Assembly: GCA_000995185.1 (NCBI GenBank)
Contig: LCET01000005.1
Span: forward strand, 84,277-148,276
Reading direction: 5' to 3'
Source of the DNA: Candidatus Woesebacteria bacterium GW2011_GWC1_42_9
GTDB lineage: Bacteria; Patescibacteriota; Microgenomatia; UBA8517
DNA: 64,000 nt
Position 1 is the stretch's first letter. Each line of letters opens with the position of its first letter. A program made the position numbers and the translations under genes. Below, in pieces: positions 57,816 through 63,638 of the stretch. A model generated the notes under the pieces. The model searched no databases. It was not told the origin of the DNA and saw only the letters and a list, made by a program, of their open reading frames with translations.

Positions 57816-58451
57816 ATGCTAATATTTTTTGCGGCTTTACTCGCCGCTATCACAGTTCACGAGTTTGCCCACGCCTTTATGGCGGTGCGCCTCGGTGATC
57901 CAACTCCAAAATTACTTGGCAGACTTACCTTTAACCCAATCGCCCATCTTGATCCTTTCGGGACACTTCTTCCTATCCTCCTGATCCTAACCGGATCACC
58001 AATTGTTTTTGGCTGGGGAAAGCCGGTCCAGTTTGACCCATATAATTTAGAAAGCCCCAGGCGTGATTCTGCCTTGATCTCATTTGCCGGCCCTGCCGCT
58101 AATTTATTACTCGCAAGTTTGCTATCGCTAATTTTAAGGCTCTCATCAGGTCCGTTCTCACCTTTCTACTTCCTCTCAAGCGTTCTTCCGTCATTTATCG
58201 TTATCAATGTAGTTTTGGCAACATTTAATCTGATCCCGGTACACCCCTTGGATGGAGGGAAAATATTAATTGGCCTGCTTCCAAATAAAGAAGCCTACAA
58301 AGCCGAGCGCTTTTTAAGCCAATATGGGATGATTATTTTATTATTCTTAATATTCCCGATCCTAAACGGCAGAAGTCCGGTTTTCATCATTCTTTCTCCT
58401 CTAATTAACCTCCTTTTATCCGTTTATCTTCCAAGCGGTTTTTTGGTCTAG
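57816..58451 (+). CDS. M50-family (site-2 protease-like) membrane metalloprotease
   Basis: HEFAHAFMAVRLGD and a later ...PLDGG motif. Start taken at MLIFF to avoid the rpmB overlap. Confidence 0.75.
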   Translation: MLIFFAALLAAITVHEFAHAFMAVRLGDPTPKLLGRLTFNPIAHLDPFGTLLPILLILTGSPIVFGWGKPVQFDPYNLESPRRDSALISFAGPAANLLLASLLSLILRLSSGPFSPFYFLSSVLPSFIVINVVLATFNLIPVHPLDGGKILIGLLPNKEAYKAERFLSQYGMIILLFLIFPILNGRSPVFIILSPLINLLLSVYLPSGFLV

Positions 58452-58453
58452 CA

Positions 58454-58462
58454 TGGTATAAT
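58454..58462 (+). promoter_or_regulatory. Extended -10 TGGTATAAT
   Basis: This exact 9-mer recurs at 60014 and 60212. The putative transcript has a ~155-nt leader before tRNA-Thr. Confidence 0.45.
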
Positions 58463-58624
58463 GCAGTGACCCCGCCAAGGGGAAATGAGAATATTTTTCC
58501 TGACCGATTACGATTTCGGGAAAGCGGAAGTTCCCGGTGACCCGTGGGTACCGGGACAGCTTACCCACCTGGAGTATCTTCCAGGAAATCTTTCTCAGCA
58601 CCCCGCAAGGCGGGGTTATGGTTC

Positions 58625-58696
58625 GCCGTCTTAGCTCAGTGGTAGAGCAGCTGTTTTGTAAACAGCAGGTCGTCGGTTCAAGCCCGACAGACGGCT
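58625..58696 (+). tRNA. tRNA-Thr(UGU)
   Basis: Acceptor GCCGTCT/AGACGGC, anticodon stem GCTGT/ACAGC with loop TTTGTAA, T-loop TTCAAGC. Confidence 0.85.
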
Positions 58697-58705
58697 CAGT
58701 TATAA

Positions 58706-58790
58706 GTCAGGGTGGCAGAGTGGTCAAACGCACGAGTCTGTAAAACTCGCGCCCGAAAGGGCTACGGGGGTTCGAATCCCTCCCCTGGCA
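58706..58790 (+). tRNA. tRNA-Tyr(GUA)
   Basis: Anticodon stem CGAGT/ACTCG with loop CTGTAAA, long variable arm GCCC-GAAA-GGGC, T-arm GGGGG-TTCGAAT-CCCTC. The acceptor has one G-U pair and the D-stem has one mismatch. Confidence 0.7.
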
Positions 58791-58830
58791 CAACATATCA
58801 TCGAAAGATTAAAGGAAAAGGAGGAACGAA

Positions 58831-58950
58831 ATGAAGCCTTACTTAGCTAAAAGTAGCTATAGGGCAACAAAAAGGAACAGCCAAGATAACCAGCTTTGCT
58901 GGTTGATCCTAGGACTGTTCGTGTTCATTGTCATCCTCTTGCTATTTTGA
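58831..58950 (+). CDS. Candidate 39-aa single-TM peptide (not in ORF track)
   Basis: AAGGAGG SD sits 8 nt before the ATG. Translation is MKPYLAKSSYRATKRNSQDNQLCWLILGLFVFIVILLLF. Confidence 0.35.
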   Translation: MKPYLAKSSYRATKRNSQDNQLCWLILGLFVFIVILLLF

Positions 58951-58960
58951 GGAGGAGACA

Positions 58961-59059
58961 ATGGAAAAGTTAAAGATGTTGGCAAAGACGGTGCTAGGAG
59001 TGTTTTTCCTGCTAGCTTTCTTGGTATTGCTTTTCATCGTTTTTCCTTACTTCCCTTAG
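58961..59059 (+). CDS. Candidate 32-aa single-TM peptide (not in ORF track)
   Basis: GAGGAGG SD sits 7 nt before the ATG. Translation is MEKLKMLAKTVLGVFFLLAFLVLLFIVFPYFP. Confidence 0.35.
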   Translation: MEKLKMLAKTVLGVFFLLAFLVLLFIVFPYFP

Positions 59060-59074
59060 GGGATTTTTGATCGA

Positions 59075-59111
59075 GAGCCCGCGGCACTCAAAAGCTTCGG
59101 GCTCTTTTTTT
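59075..59111 (+). terminator. Rho-independent terminator (gagcccg...cgggctc + T7)
   Basis: 7-bp GC stem with a 16-nt loop that contains the AAGCTT palindrome, followed by TTTTTTT. Confidence 0.55.
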
Positions 59112-59985
59112 AATTCACCCAAGCGGGTTGAGCCCAATTTTCGATATAAACCGGAAGACTTTCTTCTTTGACAATTTTTCCGTCCCTAAAAGTTAACCTA
59201 ATTGCTAGCCCTTCACGGGTTTTCTCACTCCACATCTGATCAAATACAAAATTGCCAAGTGAATAGTAAACTGGCTTACCGTTGATATGTTCTACCTCCT
59301 GCACCCAGTGCGGATGATGCCCCGCAATCACATCTGCTCCATTAAAGACCAATTTTTTAGCGATTTCATTTTGTTTATCAGAGCGATTTTCCCGATACTC
59401 CGCTCCCCAATGCACCCCGACAATCAATACATCCACTTTAGAGTCCGACTTAGCCACTAAATCATAGTCATCTTGCACCGGCCATTTGTCGATAAATTCA
59501 AAGCCCAAAAACCCAAATTTTGTACCTTTAATTTCCTTAATTACTAAATTGCCCAGTCCCGTGTAGGCGATGCCATTCTCATTAAGCACTTTTGTCGTCT
59601 CAGTAAGCCCTTTCTGCCCGTAATTTAAAATATGGTTATTGGCCAAGGTAACCACATCTACCCCCGCGTAAACAAGCCCCTCTGCCATTTTAGGATCAGC
59701 ACAGAAAATAAGACCCTCATAAGTCCGGGGGCAATTAGTGGCTACCGGGCTCTCCAAATTCGCAAACACCACATCGGCACTTCTCAATCTGTCGTTAACT
59801 TTTATAAATGGATAATTAGGGTCGCTTTTCTTGTCCAGCGAAGTGGTCGCGACAGTTCTTCCAAGCATTATATCGCCAGTCAAAATAACTTCGACCTCGG
59901 AATTAGTACTTGCAACTTTCATGATCGGAGCAAAAGAAAAGATCATAAGTGAAGAAACGATTAACAGCAAATGCTTCCTGTTCAT
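59110..59985 (-). CDS. CapA/PGA_cap-family metallophosphatase-like protein
   Basis: Signal peptide, GDIMLGR, GNHxxxx and GHHPH motifs of the CapA/YmdB-like calcineurin fold. Confidence 0.75.
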   Translation of the reverse strand: MNRKHLLLIVSSLMIFSFAPIMKVASTNSEVEVILTGDIMLGRTVATTSLDKKSDPNYPFIKVNDRLRSADVVFANLESPVATNCPRTYEGLIFCADPKMAEGLVYAGVDVVTLANNHILNYGQKGLTETTKVLNENGIAYTGLGNLVIKEIKGTKFGFLGFEFIDKWPVQDDYDLVAKSDSKVDVLIVGVHWGAEYRENRSDKQNEIAKKLVFNGADVIAGHHPHWVQEVEHINGKPVYYSLGNFVFDQMWSEKTREGLAIRLTFRDGKIVKEESLPVYIENWAQPAWVN

Positions 59986-60013
59986 GATTTTAGTTTAACA
60001 GGAATTAGATTAC

Positions 60014-60022
60014 TGGTATAAT
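60014..60022 (+). promoter_or_regulatory. Extended -10 TGGTATAAT upstream of tRNA-Thr(GGU)
   Basis: Exact repeat of the 58454 element, 26 nt before the tRNA 5-prime end. Confidence 0.45.
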
Positions 60023-60048
60023 TCGGGCACGGTCAGGGGTGGTTATTT

Positions 60049-60210
60049 GCCTGGGTAGCTCAGTGGTAAGCAAAGCTTGGCCTTCGGCTAAAGCAAAGCT
60101 TGGCCTTCGGCTAAAGCAAAGCTTGGCCTTCGGCTAAAGCAAAGCTTGGCCTTCGGTAGAGCACTTTCTTGGTAAGAAAGGGGTCGGTGGTTCGAATCCA
60201 CTCTCAGGCT
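60049..60210 (+). tRNA. tRNA-Thr(GGU) interrupted in the D-loop by a 91-nt tandem-repeat array (possible pseudogene or unusual precursor)
   Basis: GCCTGGGTAGCTCAGTGGTA-[array]-GAGCACTTTCTTGGTAAGAAAGGGGTCGGTGGTTCGAATCCACTCTCAGGCT. Without the array the sequence is a canonical tRNA: acceptor GCCTGGG/CTCAGGC, anticodon loop TTGGTAA, T-loop TTCGAAT. Confidence 0.6.
60068..60158 (+). repeat. Four head-to-tail copies of the 23-nt unit aagcaaagcttggccttcggcta (the last copy lacks one c)
   Basis: Copies at 60068-60090, 60091-60113, 60114-60136 and 60137-60158. Each unit can form a uuggcc/ggcuaa hairpin. There are no spacers, so this is not a CRISPR array. Confidence 0.9.
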
Positions 60211-60211
60211 C

Positions 60212-60220
60212 TGGTATAAT
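60212..60220 (+). promoter_or_regulatory. Extended -10 TGGTATAAT immediately after the tRNA, upstream of rpmG
   Basis: Third exact copy of the element. The rpmG ATG is 8 nt downstream, suggesting a leaderless or short-leader transcript. Confidence 0.4.
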
Positions 60221-60227
60221 ACCGATT

Positions 60228-60398
60228 ATGGCAAAAGGATCACGCGAGGTCGTTGCAATGAAATGCAGAGACTGCAAAGCGCAAAATTACATTACTACAA
60301 GAAATAAGGTCAATATTGAAGGGAAATTAGTGGTGAAAAAATATTGCAGAAATTGCCGTAAAATCACTGAGCACAAAGAAACGATAAAGCTCAAATAA
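60228..60398 (+). CDS. rpmG: 50S ribosomal protein L33 (56 aa; not in ORF track)
   Basis: Translation MAKGSREVVAMKCRDCKAQNYITTRNKVNIEGKLVVKKYCRNCRKITEHKETIKLK, with the L33 zinc-ribbon pattern C..C..NY...KN......L..KKYC..C.K.T.H.E. Confidence 0.8.
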   Translation: MAKGSREVVAMKCRDCKAQNYITTRNKVNIEGKLVVKKYCRNCRKITEHKETIKLK

Positions 60399-60421
60399 GC
60401 CTCTTTTTAAAACCCCATAGT

Positions 60422-60450
60422 CTTGACAATTCGGATATCTTTTGATATGC
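60422..60450 (+). promoter_or_regulatory. Sigma70-like promoter TTGACA-17-TATGCT
   Basis: TTGACA at 60422-60427 and TATGCT at 60445-60450. AAAGGAG SD and an ATG at 60487 follow. Confidence 0.45.
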
Positions 60451-60486
60451 TTTTTCAGTTGAAAATTAGTGCTTAAAGGAGCACGA

Positions 60487-60645
60487 AATGACCATTTACA
60501 TTAAGGTCAAAAAGTCGTCTGGGAACGGACGGCAAAAATGGTCGCAGGTTAATTTAAAGGATCCGTCGAGGATAAGGCCCACGACATTGCCTTATATTTC
60601 TCTCCCTGACCCAGGACTGAGTCCTGCAACGGATCAGCGGATCTA
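60487..60645 (+). CDS. Candidate 52-aa protein (not in ORF track)
   Basis: Translation MTIYIKVKKSSGNGRQKWSQVNLKDPSRIRPTTLPYISLPDPGLSPATDQRI. Good promoter and SD. Followed by a ggggtag...ctacccc hairpin. Confidence 0.25.
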
Positions 60646-60792
60646 AATTTGAAAAACCTGCGCGCTTAAGGGGTAGCCTTTTTTTACTAGACTACCCCTT
60701 CCCTCCCCTCATGACTTCCGCCACCTCAAATTATGTTATAATAACTCAGTATTTTTCCAATTACCTTAATTTAATTAAAAAGGAGTACTGAA

Positions 60793-61059
60793 ATGTCACT
60801 GATTGGCAAGGTTGATCCAAAATTGGGACAAGCTCCCGAAGGAATGGTTTGGTACAAGTGCGACTGTAGGGGGCGCGACTGCCACAGACGCTTTGTTGTT
60901 AGCGATAAAATCACTAAGGAGTCGGACACCGTATTATATTCCACCGATTGCGATCCGAGGATGATAATCACAGAAAGGATGGTCGTTTCTGAAGACGACA
61001 GAGGTCAAAAAACATATGGTCCTTTGATCGTCTACCAAAATCCTGTCCCAACCGTGTAA
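60793..61059 (+). CDS. Hypothetical protein
   Basis: 88 aa. AAAGGAG SD. Contains CDCRGRDCH and a later Cys. Confidence 0.45.
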   Translation: MSLIGKVDPKLGQAPEGMVWYKCDCRGRDCHRRFVVSDKITKESDTVLYSTDCDPRMIITERMVVSEDDRGQKTYGPLIVYQNPVPTV

Positions 61060-61067
61060 CTTGAATA

Positions 61068-61099
61068 GGGTCTGTCCTCCGGATGGACCCTTCTTTTTT
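61068..61099 (+). terminator. Rho-independent terminator
   Basis: gggtctgtcc-tccg-ggatggaccc followed by a T-run. Confidence 0.55.
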
Positions 61100-61162
61100 C
61101 CCAATATTGTGGTATCATCGTCCCAAGCAGTTTGAAATGTGGGATAGGATAGAAAGGATCTC

Positions 61163-61366
61163 GTGATGGCTACTGAGAATATCCCTAAGCCAAAGCCGAC
61201 CTACCCCGAACGGAATCCTCTCTCCCAAGACGCGATCGACAAAGGGATCAAATGGGCACAATGCAAAATATGCGGCGCGTGGATTATAATCGGCCCAAAA
61301 GCATATGACCTCCTTTGTGCAGTCTGCATGATCAAGGAAGATAGGGAAAAACCGTTCATCGAATAG
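61163..61366 (+). CDS. Small zinc-ribbon-like protein
   Basis: 67 aa with CKICGAW...CAVC. A TGGTATCAT -10-like element sits at 61110-61118. Confidence 0.45.
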   Translation: MMATENIPKPKPTYPERNPLSQDAIDKGIKWAQCKICGAWIIIGPKAYDLLCAVCMIKEDREKPFIE

Positions 61367-61398
61367 CCCCGCTGGCAATACCGCAAAGCGGGGTTTTT
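61365..61398 (+). terminator. Rho-independent terminator (ccccgct...agcgggg + T7)
   Basis: 7-bp GC stem followed by TTTTTTT. Confidence 0.7.
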
Positions 61399-61401
61399 TT
61401 A

Positions 61402-61410
61402 TGGTAAAAT
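61402..61410 (+). promoter_or_regulatory. Extended -10 TGGTAAAAT, 12 nt upstream of the orphan tRNA-Trp 5-prime half
   Basis: Same element and same 12-nt spacing as upstream of tRNA-Leu (2673-2681 to 2693). Confidence 0.45.
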
Positions 61411-61418
61411 AGGGGTCT

Positions 61419-61457
61419 CTTAGGCCTGTAGTGAAATGGCATCACAAGCGTCTCCAA
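61419..61457 (+). repeat. Orphan duplicate of tRNA-Trp positions -3 to 37 (5-prime half through the anticodon CCA and A37)
   Basis: 39/39 identity between 61419-61457 and 61744-61782 (cttaggcctgtagtgaaatggcatcacaagcgtctccaa). The two sequences diverge immediately after tRNA nucleotide 37. Confidence 0.85.
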
Positions 61458-61782
61458 CCCCGCAGTTGCGGGGCGAATCCTTTAGGCTATAATAATTTGT
61501 GTATTACGTTTACGTACTATTAAGCAAGAAGGACAACAATATTTATACCGGTTTTACTTCAGATTTAAGAAGGAGAATTAAAGAGCATAAACTTGGCAAA
61601 GTAAAATCTACTGACAAGAGACGTCCACTTGAACTCATATATTACGAGACTTACAAAAACAAAAATGACGCAAAACATAGAGAAAAATACCTTAAAAGTG
61701 GTGGTAAGGCTAAAAATACGCTAAAATTGCAGATAACAAAATCCTTAGGCCTGTAGTGAAATGGCATCACAAGCGTCTCCAA
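61458..61782 (+). mobile_element. Putative 325-bp insertion carrying a GIY-YIG endonuclease gene and a replacement tRNA-Trp 5-prime half
   Basis: Inferred from the duplication. The segment starts with a ccccgcagttgcgggg hairpin, has a TATAAT at 61486-61491, carries the GIY-YIG ORF, and ends with the tRNA 5-prime half that rejoins the resident 3-prime half. Confidence 0.4.
61499..61756 (+). CDS. GIY-YIG-family nuclease (small UPF0213-type)
   Basis: GTG start. YYVYVLLSKKDNNIYTGFTSDLRRRIKEH is the GIY-YIG motif with the conserved Arg and Glu. The last four codons (SLGL*) are encoded by the first 10 nt of the repeat, including the tRNA-Trp 5-prime end. Confidence 0.75.
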   Translation: MYYVYVLLSKKDNNIYTGFTSDLRRRIKEHKLGKVKSTDKRRPLELIYYETYKNKNDAKHREKYLKSGGKAKNTLKLQITKSLGL

Positions 61783-61820
61783 AACGCTTATTCCAGGTTC
61801 GAATCCTGGCAGGCCTGCCA
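61747..61820 (+). tRNA. tRNA-Trp(CCA), with CCA encoded
   Basis: Acceptor AGGCCTG/CAGGCCT, D-arm GTGA-AATGGCA-TCAC, anticodon stem AGCGT/ACGCT with loop CTCCAAA, T-arm CCAGG-TTCGAAT-CCTGG, discriminator G, then CCA. Confidence 0.9.
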
Positions 61821-61847
61821 TACGGCTCTGATACAATGTAAGCTGAC

Positions 61848-63638
61848 TTGAAGAGTATAAAGAGAAAACTCAATAAATCTTCTAGGAAAGTATTGCTTGG
61901 GTGGGCCGCTATCCTCTTCTTGGCCCTTCTATTAAGGTCGTATGGGCTCAATCTAAACCCGGTTGGAATAAGCCACGACGATGAACTAAATGAAATATTA
62001 AATGCAAAATCAGTGGCTCTAACTCAAACTCAGCGACCAGGTTTTGTTGCCGGAATATTGACGCAAACCGATCAATGCAAATTTATTGGCGACTGCGTAT
62101 ATGGCGAATTAGGAACTTATATTCAAGTTCCGTGGATGTATTTCTCCCCGCTTGGTTTAGCTTTTTCTAGAATATTTTTTGTACTTATCTCTCTTGGGTT
62201 GGTTATTGCTACAGGCAAGTTATTTGAAAACTTTTCTAAAAGTACCACGATTGGCATGATTACAGGATTATTTGTCGCGATTAATCCCTGGGCGATTTAC
62301 TACGGGAGAACCGCGCACACTATTTTGGCATCCCATTTATTCTATTGTCTAGCCGCTTACTATTTCACTCGCCCCAATTCCTATAAATCTAATCTAATAT
62401 TTGGGGGTATAACTGCATTCATTGCATCTTTAATTTACTTTGGAGCAAAACCAATATTACCGCTAATAATTATTTGGGGAGTCTCATACAATTTATATCA
62501 ATTTGGATTTCGCAATATAAAGTTTACTTTTCAATTCCTTTTGGTAGCAATGATCGTGATTGGCGGGTATTTACTGATACTCTCTAATTCGTATGCGGGA
62601 AAAAGGTTTACCGACATAGAGAATGGGCGGCAGGAAAATGTGGGAATAACAATTGAGCTTGGCGGAAGTACTTCTTGGAGGGTAGGCCGACAAGTAGACA
62701 AAGTTACCCCGCGAATAGATAGTTTTCTTGGCTTCTTTTCTGCCTCGTCTTTATTTTTGACCGGACAGAGAGCATCTGACAACTACTATCTTTCGGGGCA
62801 TGGATATTACTATTTGGCAGACTTTATATTTCTAATACTTGGAATAATGGCAATTTCGTCCAGATTTGGGAGGGCAATGTTTATTTTGCTTTTGATTGCG
62901 ATTTCTATCACCCCAACTGCGATTAAGATCTCAGGAACTAGCATTTATTCACACAGGGCTTCACTAGCTTATCCCCTGATTAGCGGCATAATGGCATGGG
63001 GACTTTATTTTTGTTGGAGCAAGGTGCCGGCGAAGCCGTTTCTTGCCAAGATATTTTTACTATCAGCAGCAATCGTCTATTCCGGGTCTTTAATTTATTT
63101 TTTGTTTGTTTATTGGTATCGAAGTCCAGTCGAACAAAGCACGCGCTGGTTTTTCCACGAAAGAGTATTAGCAAGCTATATAACCAGAGTTCAAAAAAAT
63201 AATGAAAATAAAAAACTAATAGTAATCTCGGGACGCCCGGATGGGATTTTTAATTCATATGTTTTCTATAGCGGTGTTTACAATAACAAAGAAGGAATTA
63301 TAGAAATAAACAGTAAATACTTAGAGCGCGATTATGCGTATCGAGGAGCGATGTTCACTGATGATTGCAGTAAGATTGCCCAAGAAGACCTAGCCGAAAA
63401 CATTATTTTTATTGACAAAATCAATAATCCGGAGTGTGAAATTAACTTAGGCAACACCTCCAGAATTTCTAACCCAAGAGACGCGGGGGTGATCTATAAC
63501 ATCGTAAATGACTCCCTTTGTAAAGATTACTCGATTGGCAGATATCCGTACCCAAAAAGTATTCACGACTTTAGCGTAGAAAACCAAACAGATGAAGTCT
63601 TTTGTAAAACTTGGATAACAAATCCAGAAGTTAACTAA
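61848..63638 (+). CDS. GT39/ArnT-like (PMT_2 family) membrane glycosyltransferase, paralogue of 16050-17777
   Basis: TTG start. About 12 TMs. Early acidic loop (SHDDELNE). Large C-terminal soluble domain. Confidence 0.6.
   Translation: MKSIKRKLNKSSRKVLLGWAAILFLALLLRSYGLNLNPVGISHDDELNEILNAKSVALTQTQRPGFVAGILTQTDQCKFIGDCVYGELGTYIQVPWMYFSPLGLAFSRIFFVLISLGLVIATGKLFENFSKSTTIGMITGLFVAINPWAIYYGRTAHTILASHLFYCLAAYYFTRPNSYKSNLIFGGITAFIASLIYFGAKPILPLIIIWGVSYNLYQFGFRNIKFTFQFLLVAMIVIGGYLLILSNSYAGKRFTDIENGRQENVGITIELGGSTSWRVGRQVDKVTPRIDSFLGFFSASSLFLTGQRASDNYYLSGHGYYYLADFIFLILGIMAISSRFGRAMFILLLIAISITPTAIKISGTSIYSHRASLAYPLISGIMAWGLYFCWSKVPAKPFLAKIFLLSAAIVYSGSLIYFLFVYWYRSPVEQSTRWFFHERVLASYITRVQKNNENKKLIVISGRPDGIFNSYVFYSGVYNNKEGIIEINSKYLERDYAYRGAMFTDDCSKIAQEDLAENIIFIDKINNPECEINLGNTSRISNPRDAGVIYNIVNDSLCKDYSIGRYPYPKSIHDFSVENQTDEVFCKTWITNPEVN

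Follow-up and report, generated by a model that had tools for sequence, protein, structure and literature searches.

Architecture of the Interrupted tRNA-Thr(GGU) Locus

Positions 60049-60210 of the window (the whole 64-kb stretch of DNA that was analysed) read directly as nucleotides 1-20 of a tRNA-Thr(GGU), approximately four copies of a 23-nt unit, and then the remaining part of the tRNA; all features of this locus lie on the + strand. The extended -10 element that a previous sequence-only reading had proposed upstream of it belongs to a sigma-70-type promoter (TTAACA, 16 nt, TG-n-TATAAT; 59995-60022) that matches the consensus at 11 of 12 positions and carries the TG extension. A 26-nt leader (60023-60048), identical in contigs L001, L002, and L016 from other assemblies, connects this promoter to the first tRNA fragment, GCCTGGGTAGCTCAGTGGTA (60049-60068), which provides the acceptor 5' strand, the D-stem 5' strand, and the D-loop up to GGTA. 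The tandem array of the 23-nt unit AAGCAAAGCTTGGCCTTCGGCTA spans 60068-60156, as delineated by TRF, a pattern search, and folds; three of its units are perfect (60068-60136), and the fourth (60137-60156) is truncated after ...TTCGG.

Behind the array, TA-GAGCACTTTCTTGGTAAGAAAGGGGTCGGTGGTTCGAATCCACTCTCAGGC-T extends to position 60210. The stretch from GAGC at 60159 through CTCAGGC-T represents nucleotides 22-76 of tRNA-Thr(GGU) (60159-60210); it is part of a partial Rfam tRNA match, is found in identical form within the complete tRNA of contig L016, and comprises the D-stem 3' strand, the GGT anticodon arm, the variable loop, the T-arm, the acceptor 3' strand, and the discriminator T, with no CCA encoded at the 3' end. 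The junction GG|TA (60155-60158) links the array to this tRNA body and reads GGCCTTCGG|TAGAGCAC (...CTTCGG joined to TAGAGC...); comparison with contigs L001, L002, L016, L022, and L024 revealed that 61 nt present in these other assemblies are missing here between positions 60156 and 60157. Further downstream, again as the earlier reading had it, come a second TGgTATAAT (60212-60220) and rpmG (60228-60398), whose gene call matches Pfam Ribosomal_L33. With only 7 nt between the end of this -10 element and the ATG, rpmG probably gives rise to a leaderless mRNA.

The computational detectors agree with this description. TRF reported 60068-60163 with a period of 23, 4.2 copies, 97% matches, and a score of 178, and the unit occurs four times in the window when up to three mismatches are allowed (0 expected from shuffles), with no occurrence in the 64 kb beyond the array in the pattern search. 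The proposal that a tandem 23-nt array splits the D-loop is thus borne out: 90 extra nt lie between nucleotides 20 and 22, so that the D-loop is not of normal size. ARAGORN made no tRNA call on the locus in place and called tRNA-Thr(ggt) once 60069-60158 had been deleted in silico, exactly the removal that had been suggested to leave a tRNA-Thr. Rfam likewise returned a partial tRNA match only (60143-60202), at 28.9 bits against a gathering score of 29 bits. A search of the window for copies of tRNA 5' and 3' fragments uncovered no second tRNA-Thr(GGT) body; only tRNA-Trp has such a copy. Since ACT and ACC together account for ~55% of the Thr codons in the window, the loss of the tRNA that reads them would be costly.

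Several further features were noticed in the neighborhood. The TGGTATAAT motif was seen at ~58453 and at 60014, and again before rpmG (60212-60228). Between the TGGTATAAT promoter at ~58453 and a tRNA-Thr(UGU)-tRNA-Tyr pair, positions 58466-58620 gave a weak match to 6S RNA (29.2 bits; gathering score, 46.4); this stretch may be a divergent CPR 6S RNA that is co-transcribed with the two tRNAs. Three small ORFs occupy 60488-61366, between rpmG and a GIY-YIG gene. The 52-aa and 88-aa ORFs of this interval are called in other assemblies and have no Pfam match on record; paired Cys motifs suggestive of zinc ribbons are present in the 88-aa ORF (60793-61059) and in a 67-aa ORF (61163-61366) that is found in the ORF list only.

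Other Assemblies Carry a Complete tRNA-Thr(GGU) Behind the Array

We retrieved contigs covering the same locus by exact-protein look-ups with rpmG, PGA_cap, and the 52-aa and 88-aa ORFs in JGI, ENA, and Logan. In NCBI, the proteins of the locus are those of Candidatus Woesebacteria bacterium GW2011_GWB1_43_14 / GWA1_39_11b, which are metagenome-assembled genomes (MAGs) from Rifle groundwater. The flanks of contigs L001 and L002 are 99.9-100% identical to the window. In five contigs from five assemblies (L001, L002/L017, L016, L022, and L024), we could directly read a different arrangement, referred to here as the intact type: promoter, 26-nt leader, the 20-nt fragment GCCTGGGTAGCTCAGTGGTA, array, a stretch complementary to the D-arm (anti-D-arm), a spacer, and a complete tRNA-Thr(GGU). 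Hence, in the other five assemblies the array lies in the 5' leader of the tRNA and not inside the tRNA body.

The array comprises 4.65 or 5.65 units in the intact type where it is present at its whole length. It is followed in the five assemblies by CCTCTGATCTACCGGCTTAGAATATTC and then by the complete tRNA; this intervening sequence equals AAGCAAAGCTTGG-CCTCTGATCTACC-GGCTTAGAATATTC. CCTCTGATCTACC is the D-arm complement and can pair with GGTAGCTCAGTGG at 11 of 13 positions at the Thr locus, where the complementary stretch as a whole measures 13-16 nt and is separated from the gene by an AU-rich spacer of ~11 nt. The array meets this clamp at CTTGG|CCTCTGATC, and the gene starts at ATATTC|GCCTGGGTAGCTCAGTGGTA|GAGC. 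Through this arrangement the 5' part of the tRNA is present twice, as a direct duplication of 20 nt exactly, or of 25 nt with one mismatch (L001, L002, and L016). In Rfam, the complete tRNA reaches 66.8 bits; ARAGORN calls it tRNA-Thr(ggt) (L016, L001, and L002). Among the 13 contigs that contain the neighboring 52-aa ORF, eight form one group, L024 included; rpmG of L024 is called as an 81-aa protein, and this call begins at the GTG of CAGTGGTAG, a sequence found in the intact type only.

The 61 nt missing from the window consist of CTA followed by AAGCAAAGCTTGG, CCTCTGATCTACC, GGCTTAGAATATTC, and GCCTGGGTAGCTCAGTGG, and microhomology of the form GG(C)TA(A/G)AGC exists at this gap. Without these 61 nt, the array abuts tRNA nucleotide 20/21 and the complete tRNA is gone. 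The only acceptor 5' strand available to the window RNA is the 20-nt fragment, and the gene is almost certainly not a functional tRNA. As judged from the sequence comparison, the copy in the window appears to be a variant, shorter by 61 bases, of a locus that is unusual and yet works, and not a new tRNA intron. The comparison of same-locus assemblies also revealed variation in copy number (3.96 in the window, 4.65 and 5.65 elsewhere), and six contigs stop within the array. No window-type junction was present among the contigs listed by the exact-protein look-ups, and the window's own contig was not among them.

The 23-nt Unit Is a Dispersed Hairpin Element

While the array had been taken for a local minisatellite, its unit proved to be a dispersed element at unrelated loci. 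The exact 23-mer is contained in eight metagenome contigs, singly or in arrays and in unrelated intergenic contexts, and the 20-nt hairpin core occurs twice on the Candidatus Microgenomatus contig DYGT01000007.1. In total, copies were found at 10 distinct loci of metagenome and genome contigs with differing neighbor genes, among them pilins, an antitoxin, L25, topA, and blaI/blaR-like genes. Multiple near-identical copies at unrelated, mostly intergenic loci are what characterizes a dispersed repeat. Most sites carry a single 1.5-unit copy of ~35 nt (AAGCAAAGCTTGGCCTTCGGCTAAAGCA[A/G]AGCTTG); arrays elsewhere amount to 5.5 copies in L005/L009, and others are situated at contig ends.

The core of the unit is predicted to form an 8-bp hairpin, GCUUGGCC-UUC-GGCUAAAGC, with one bulge, and AAA links successive units; in arrays, pairing between units is predicted to give rods. 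The retrieved copies do not differ in sequence and leave no room for covariation. Among the GTDB genomes, a single one yielded the core (Candidatus Microgenomatus DYGT01); the genome of the window is therefore not one of the array-bearing species representatives. The core 20-mer had 0 matches in viral contigs and, hence, the element shows no phage link. An Rfam scan by E-value of positions 58000-62500 and of contig L016 returned no intron, riboswitch, or sRNA family; it returned the tRNAs, the weak 6S match, and a spurious mir-266 match to the array. We saw no transposase beside any copy of the element, and none of the six non-tRNA loci tested had significant flanking inverted or direct repeats, which led us to reject a MITE-like model with terminal inverted repeats (TIRs) and target-site duplications (TSDs).

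At three of the sites (L003, L004, and L012), the element is located at most 20 nt upstream of a start codon (antitoxin, pilin, and BlaR1-like), and a similar CAAAC-T..-GTTTATGA stretch follows it, with no Shine-Dalgarno sequence obvious by eye. The element may extend in the 3' direction beyond its 35-nt core, or it may influence translation initiation.

A tRNA-Gln Gene With a Matching Layout

A second tRNA gene with the same layout was found on contig L011, which stems from another genus than the window. Here, GCCCGGTGGTGTAATGGTA corresponds to nucleotides 1-19 of tRNA-Gln and ends at the GGTA of the D-loop; the element comes directly after it and is trailed by CCATTACACC, a perfect reverse complement of the D-arm, a 13-nt spacer, and an intact tRNA-Gln(CTG). 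The direct duplication is exact over 24 nt (-5 to +19). In both tRNAs the element abuts the same D-loop nucleotide, and of the sites tested these two tRNA loci are the only ones with a significant inverted repeat around the element (p~0 and ~0.02). Thus, two of the 10 known element sites fall on the same nucleotide of a tRNA D-loop and possess the same extra features, a coincidence that would be hard to attribute to chance.

The neighborhood of the tRNA-Gln gene has more such traces. At positions 4083-4589 of L011 (DYGT01000007.1, Candidatus Microgenomatus sp.), the 5' end of tRNA-Gln is repeated in three nested copies. The oldest of them (4083) is interrupted in its D-arm by ~61 nt and is followed by a GIY-YIG ORF that ends in the second copy, by the 23-nt element with its anti-D-arm, and by the intact tRNA-Gln. 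This succession suggests that the same few nucleotides of one tRNA gene may have been hit repeatedly.

A tRNA-Trp Copy Upstream of a GIY-YIG Gene

In the window itself, the 5' part of tRNA-Trp (-3 to nucleotide 37, 39 nt) is duplicated at 61419-61457, upstream of the GIY-YIG gene (61499-61756), whose 85-aa product is terminated by a stop codon inside the real tRNA-Trp (61747-61820). A GC hairpin (CCCCGCAGTTGCGGGG) follows the copy in place of nucleotides 38-54 and precedes CGAATCC, a remnant of the T-loop. The GIY-YIG gene abuts tRNA-Trp in all five lineages examined, that is, the window and four sampled homolog contexts. A clear tRNA-Trp copy exists in four lineages (the window, L025-27, L028, and L031), with compensatory changes in the hairpin, and each clear copy matches the tRNA-Trp of its own genome, although these tRNAs differ between genomes; the copy in L029/30 is degenerate.

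This arrangement resembles that of the Thr locus in that a displaced 5' copy beside the ancestral promoter is combined with a hairpin, an insert, and an intact tRNA. It differs in its breakpoint, which is located in the anticodon loop (after nucleotide 37), and in an insert that encodes an 85-aa protein. Furthermore, the GIY-YIG/tRNA-Trp arrangement is of old date and has been conserved in different genera of Microgenomates; that of the Thr locus was encountered in the present species only.

Orthologous tRNA-Thr(GGT) Genes Are Uninterrupted

Three relatives (L019, L020, and L021; PGA_cap 65-69% identical) possess a plain tRNA-Thr(GGT) gene that is divergently oriented beside PGA_cap. It is an ordinary gene with a homologous promoter and a leader of 10-24 nt; neither an array nor a 5' fragment is present at this gene in any of the three. 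As a synteny anchor, PGA_cap served only in part: L020 and L021 have lost the rpmG synteny downstream and have kept the divergent tRNA-Thr(GGT). Since array and fragment are absent from the relatives sampled, the rearrangement appears limited to this species among those compared. The window promoter (59995-60022) aligns with the promoter regions of all three relatives, and it is therefore the promoter beside the 5' fragment that is conserved in the orthologs. CTTAGAA is common to the leader of one ortholog and the spacer that adjoins the intact gene.

In L021 (1980-2200, minus strand; PGA_cap 67% identical), two 3' fragments of tRNA-Thr(GGT), GAAGAAGGTCATGGGTT ... ATTCCCATCGTCGACTC, lie downstream of the normal gene, ~75 nt apart at the T-loop, and CTCTCAGATTGGGCTC is repeated as well. 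They resemble an att-type scar or a further tRNA copy with an interruption.

Two Possible Origins of the Window Junction

The window junction could be a deletion allele or a wrong assembly path, and we regard these two origins as about evenly balanced. The pure periodicity of the array covers ~131 nt, whereas the assembler k was 127-141 and the reads were little longer. With an array as long as the assembler k and nearly as long as a read, copy number and path are unreliable in any short-read assembly. Re-assemblies of groundwater from the same aquifer at Rifle display only the intact type, or break within the array. Pointing in the other direction, the overlap at the window junction amounts to only 2-4 nt, which a de Bruijn assembler cannot invent, and this favors real molecules.

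Logan contigs (k = 31) end at exact branch points of the assembly graph; the end predicted at 61448, for example, is observed at the 39-nt tRNA-Trp repeat. The start of contig L034, which stems from seven runs, falls on TAGAGCAC (60157), at a distance of 2 nt from the window junction. Contigs L014 and L015, from eight runs, end at 60078, as would be expected if the junction between fragment and array were also situated behind the spacer. In an unrelated run, going by the reported gene coordinates, one contig reaches 60097, the end predicted for a simple intact allele. These contig ends hint that the Rifle reads may contain, next to the intact allele, junctions of the array with the tRNA body and of the spacer with fragment and array; L034 could instead start where it does by virtue of a related tRNA sharing 31 nt. 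The sample behind the window could itself contain the window junction as a real and even abundant sequence. On either origin, the 162-nt product of the window is not a working tRNA. Among the options offered by the sequence-only reading, a freshly inactivated gene and an assembly artefact therefore both survive, and an unusual precursor or novel intron position found no support.

Discussion

Probable Rearrangement of the 5' Side of a Working tRNA Gene

We consider it likely that in this Candidatus Woesebacteria from the Rifle aquifer, the 5' side of the tRNA-Thr(GGU) gene was rebuilt around a dispersed hairpin element, and that the window contains this locus minus 61 nt. As an integral part of this explanation, and with the same good likelihood, the array would have arisen through slippage-prone amplification of an element that is scattered in the intergenic DNA of Microgenomates.

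The intact type has only one consensus promoter, and it is situated upstream of the 5' fragment (the decoy). As this is the sole detectable promoter, the intact tRNA would be made with a leader of ~215 nt. We envision that transcription of the entire stretch starts at this promoter and that, as the RNA emerges, decoy, array, and anti-D-arm become folded together in a single long rod. By acting as a clamp, the anti-D-arm would prevent competition between the decoy and the real 5' strand of the tRNA, and it plausibly blocks pairing of the decoy with the tRNA 3' strand. RNase P cleavage at G1, perhaps preceded by cleavage of the rod by RNase III, would then release a normal tRNA. The fold predicted for the intact type conforms to this picture, with decoy, array, and anti-D-arm in one rod and the tRNA arms free (z = -2.4), and the L011 transcript also folds better than its shuffles (z = -3.1); for the complete window-type transcript, the predicted fold did not surpass shuffles (z = -0.37). 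The window version could have been generated by a microhomology- or hairpin-mediated deletion, or by an assembler taking a short cut where short reads do not suffice to resolve the sequence.

Alternative Explanations

The order of events could also be reversed, such that the window arrangement is primary. The element would then have been inserted, or copied by microhomology, at GGTA|GAGC, thereby inactivating the gene; the intact allele would be a later rescue, and both would persist. The promoter that is conserved in the orthologs is indeed the one beside the 5' fragment, GGTA flanks the array on both sides in the window as in a clean insertion, the element sits at the same D-loop nucleotide of the tRNA-Gln from another genus, and the Logan contig ends suggest additional junctions in several runs. 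However, this scenario demands a non-functional intermediate of a tRNA that reads ~55% of the Thr codons, and a complex rescue that must have taken place independently at two tRNAs, while a single 61-nt deletion suffices to convert the intact into the window arrangement. Moreover, the window junction is absent from every other assembled contig listed, and the CTTAGAA that the spacer has in common with an ortholog leader also speaks against it. We therefore judge a primary insertion to be unlikely. Far less probable still, and in our estimation close to negligible, is a 162-nt gene that yields a functional tRNA, with the extension of the D-loop either tolerated as a rod or removed by a new class of bacterial intron. 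A cloverleaf from whose D-loop the array protrudes as a rod is predicted within 0.1 kcal/mol of the minimum free energy, and the insertion at 20/21 affects the part of the tRNA D-loop that is variable in length. In the best fold compatible with a cloverleaf, however, the rod sequesters by pairing G18 and G19, on which the elbow between D-loop and T-loop depends, and the window transcript as a whole folds no better than its shuffles. The inserted repeat is also found at loci without a tRNA, the junctions lack a bulge-helix-bulge (BHB) motif by inspection, the Rfam scan disclosed no intron family, and an uninterrupted gene is present in the same population. We know of no bacterial activity that would remove the rod.

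A further possibility is that the array is neither neutral nor selfish and instead serves as a functional RNA or DNA element, for instance as a regulatory leader that controls maturation of the tRNA, as a processed small-RNA array like that of type III antitoxins, or as iteron-like sites for protein binding. The exact conservation of the unit across genomes and environments would fit such a role, as would its position within 20 nt upstream of start codons at three loci and the similar array size (5.5-5.65 copies) at two unrelated loci; in addition, the decoy/anti-D-arm pair and the real tRNA 5' strand could in principle adopt two alternative folds that exclude each other. On the other side of the ledger stand an unstable copy number, the lack of any consistent neighbor gene or downstream toxin gene, the lack of a matching Rfam family, and orthologous tRNA-Thr loci that work without an array. 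We deem a functional array quite improbable. The opposite emphasis is to grant the element itself more: it might specifically target GGTA|G in tRNA D-loops of Microgenomates and bring along a built-in repair in the form of a duplication of ~24-25 nt (-5 to +20) and an inverted clamp that neutralizes the displaced fragment; owing to a structure prone to hairpins and slippage, intact and interrupted alleles might interconvert within populations, the window containing one of the interrupted kind, and the GIY-YIG/tRNA-Trp arrangement might be an older product of the same process. We entertain this idea tentatively and think it rather unlikely to be correct in its entirety. The explanation that we favor remains a 5' side rebuilt around a dispersed element, with the window locus as its shortened version.

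Comparison With Known Systems

Several known types of arrays and insertions were considered and set aside. The units are strictly head-to-tail without spacers, which excludes a CRISPR array. A ToxI-like type III toxin-antitoxin system is contradicted by the downstream genes, which are the tRNA and rpmG here and unrelated genes elsewhere, none of them a toxin gene, and iterons by the lack of any replication context. A group I intron does not agree with the D-loop site, with a length of only 90 nt, or with the lack of an Rfam intron family. Neither the junction sequences nor the predicted fold contain the bulge-helix-bulge of an archaeal-type intron, and a novel bacterial tRNA intron was discarded on the grounds that no BHB was seen by inspection, no Rfam intron family matched, and the insert is a repeat found elsewhere. 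Archaeal tRNA introns can sit in the D-loop; the BHB consists of 3-nt bulges around a 4-bp helix, and group I introns of tRNAs occupy the anticodon loop, have a P3-P8 core, and exceed 200 nt. The window locus is like these introns in that extra sequence interrupts a tRNA body, and unlike them in that the Thr insert consists of a dispersed repeat whose copy number varies, in a bacterial host whose population also has the gene without interruption.

Closer relatives in kind are the short dispersed hairpin repeats of bacterial genomes, to which REP/BIME, Correia/NEMIS, and the Rickettsia palindromic elements belong. Common to them and to the element described here are a short sequence predicted to form a hairpin (23-35 nt) and near-identical intergenic copies that are sometimes clustered, and, like the Rickettsia elements, the present one can come to lie inside RNA or protein genes. 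The present unit differs through its head-to-tail order with a strict 23-nt period, the lack of TIRs and TSDs at non-tRNA sites, the lack of an identified RAYT or transposase beside its copies, and, at the tRNA loci, a 20-25-nt direct duplication together with an inverted copy of the target. At E. coli tyrT, tandem 178-bp repeats are reportedly positioned downstream of tRNA-Tyr, each with its last ~19 nt. That locus likewise combines a tandem array with a partial tRNA copy, is co-transcribed, and probably originated from unequal recombination or slippage; its duplicated part, however, is the 3' end, located downstream and inside the repeat unit, in contrast to the single upstream 5' fragment and the unrelated dispersed hairpin unit of the Thr locus. 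The att duplications of integrative elements similarly leave part of a tRNA twice as a direct repeat around an insert and preserve the intact gene, but here it is the 5' and not the 3' part that is duplicated, the insert is ~170 nt long, non-coding, and devoid of an integrase, and an inverted copy of the target is present. In the literature that we searched, we found no description of the fragment/hairpin/clamp layout, which is recurrent and, within that literature, undescribed.

Implications for tRNA Genes in CPR Bacteria

A minisatellite in the D-loop of a bacterial tRNA would be remarkable, but it is largely explained away by the intact gene in the same organism and by the 61 nt that the window lacks in a region where short-read assembly is unreliable. 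For genome annotation, the consequence is that a MAG built from the window arrangement would appear to be without tRNA-Thr(GGU), the tRNA for ~55% of its Thr codons. If intact and interrupted alleles do interconvert, a tRNA gene would in effect be polymorphic for an on and an off state. If the arrangements at the Thr, Gln, and Trp tRNAs share one mechanism, they would represent an undescribed route by which the tRNA genes of CPR bacteria absorb insertions while keeping their function.
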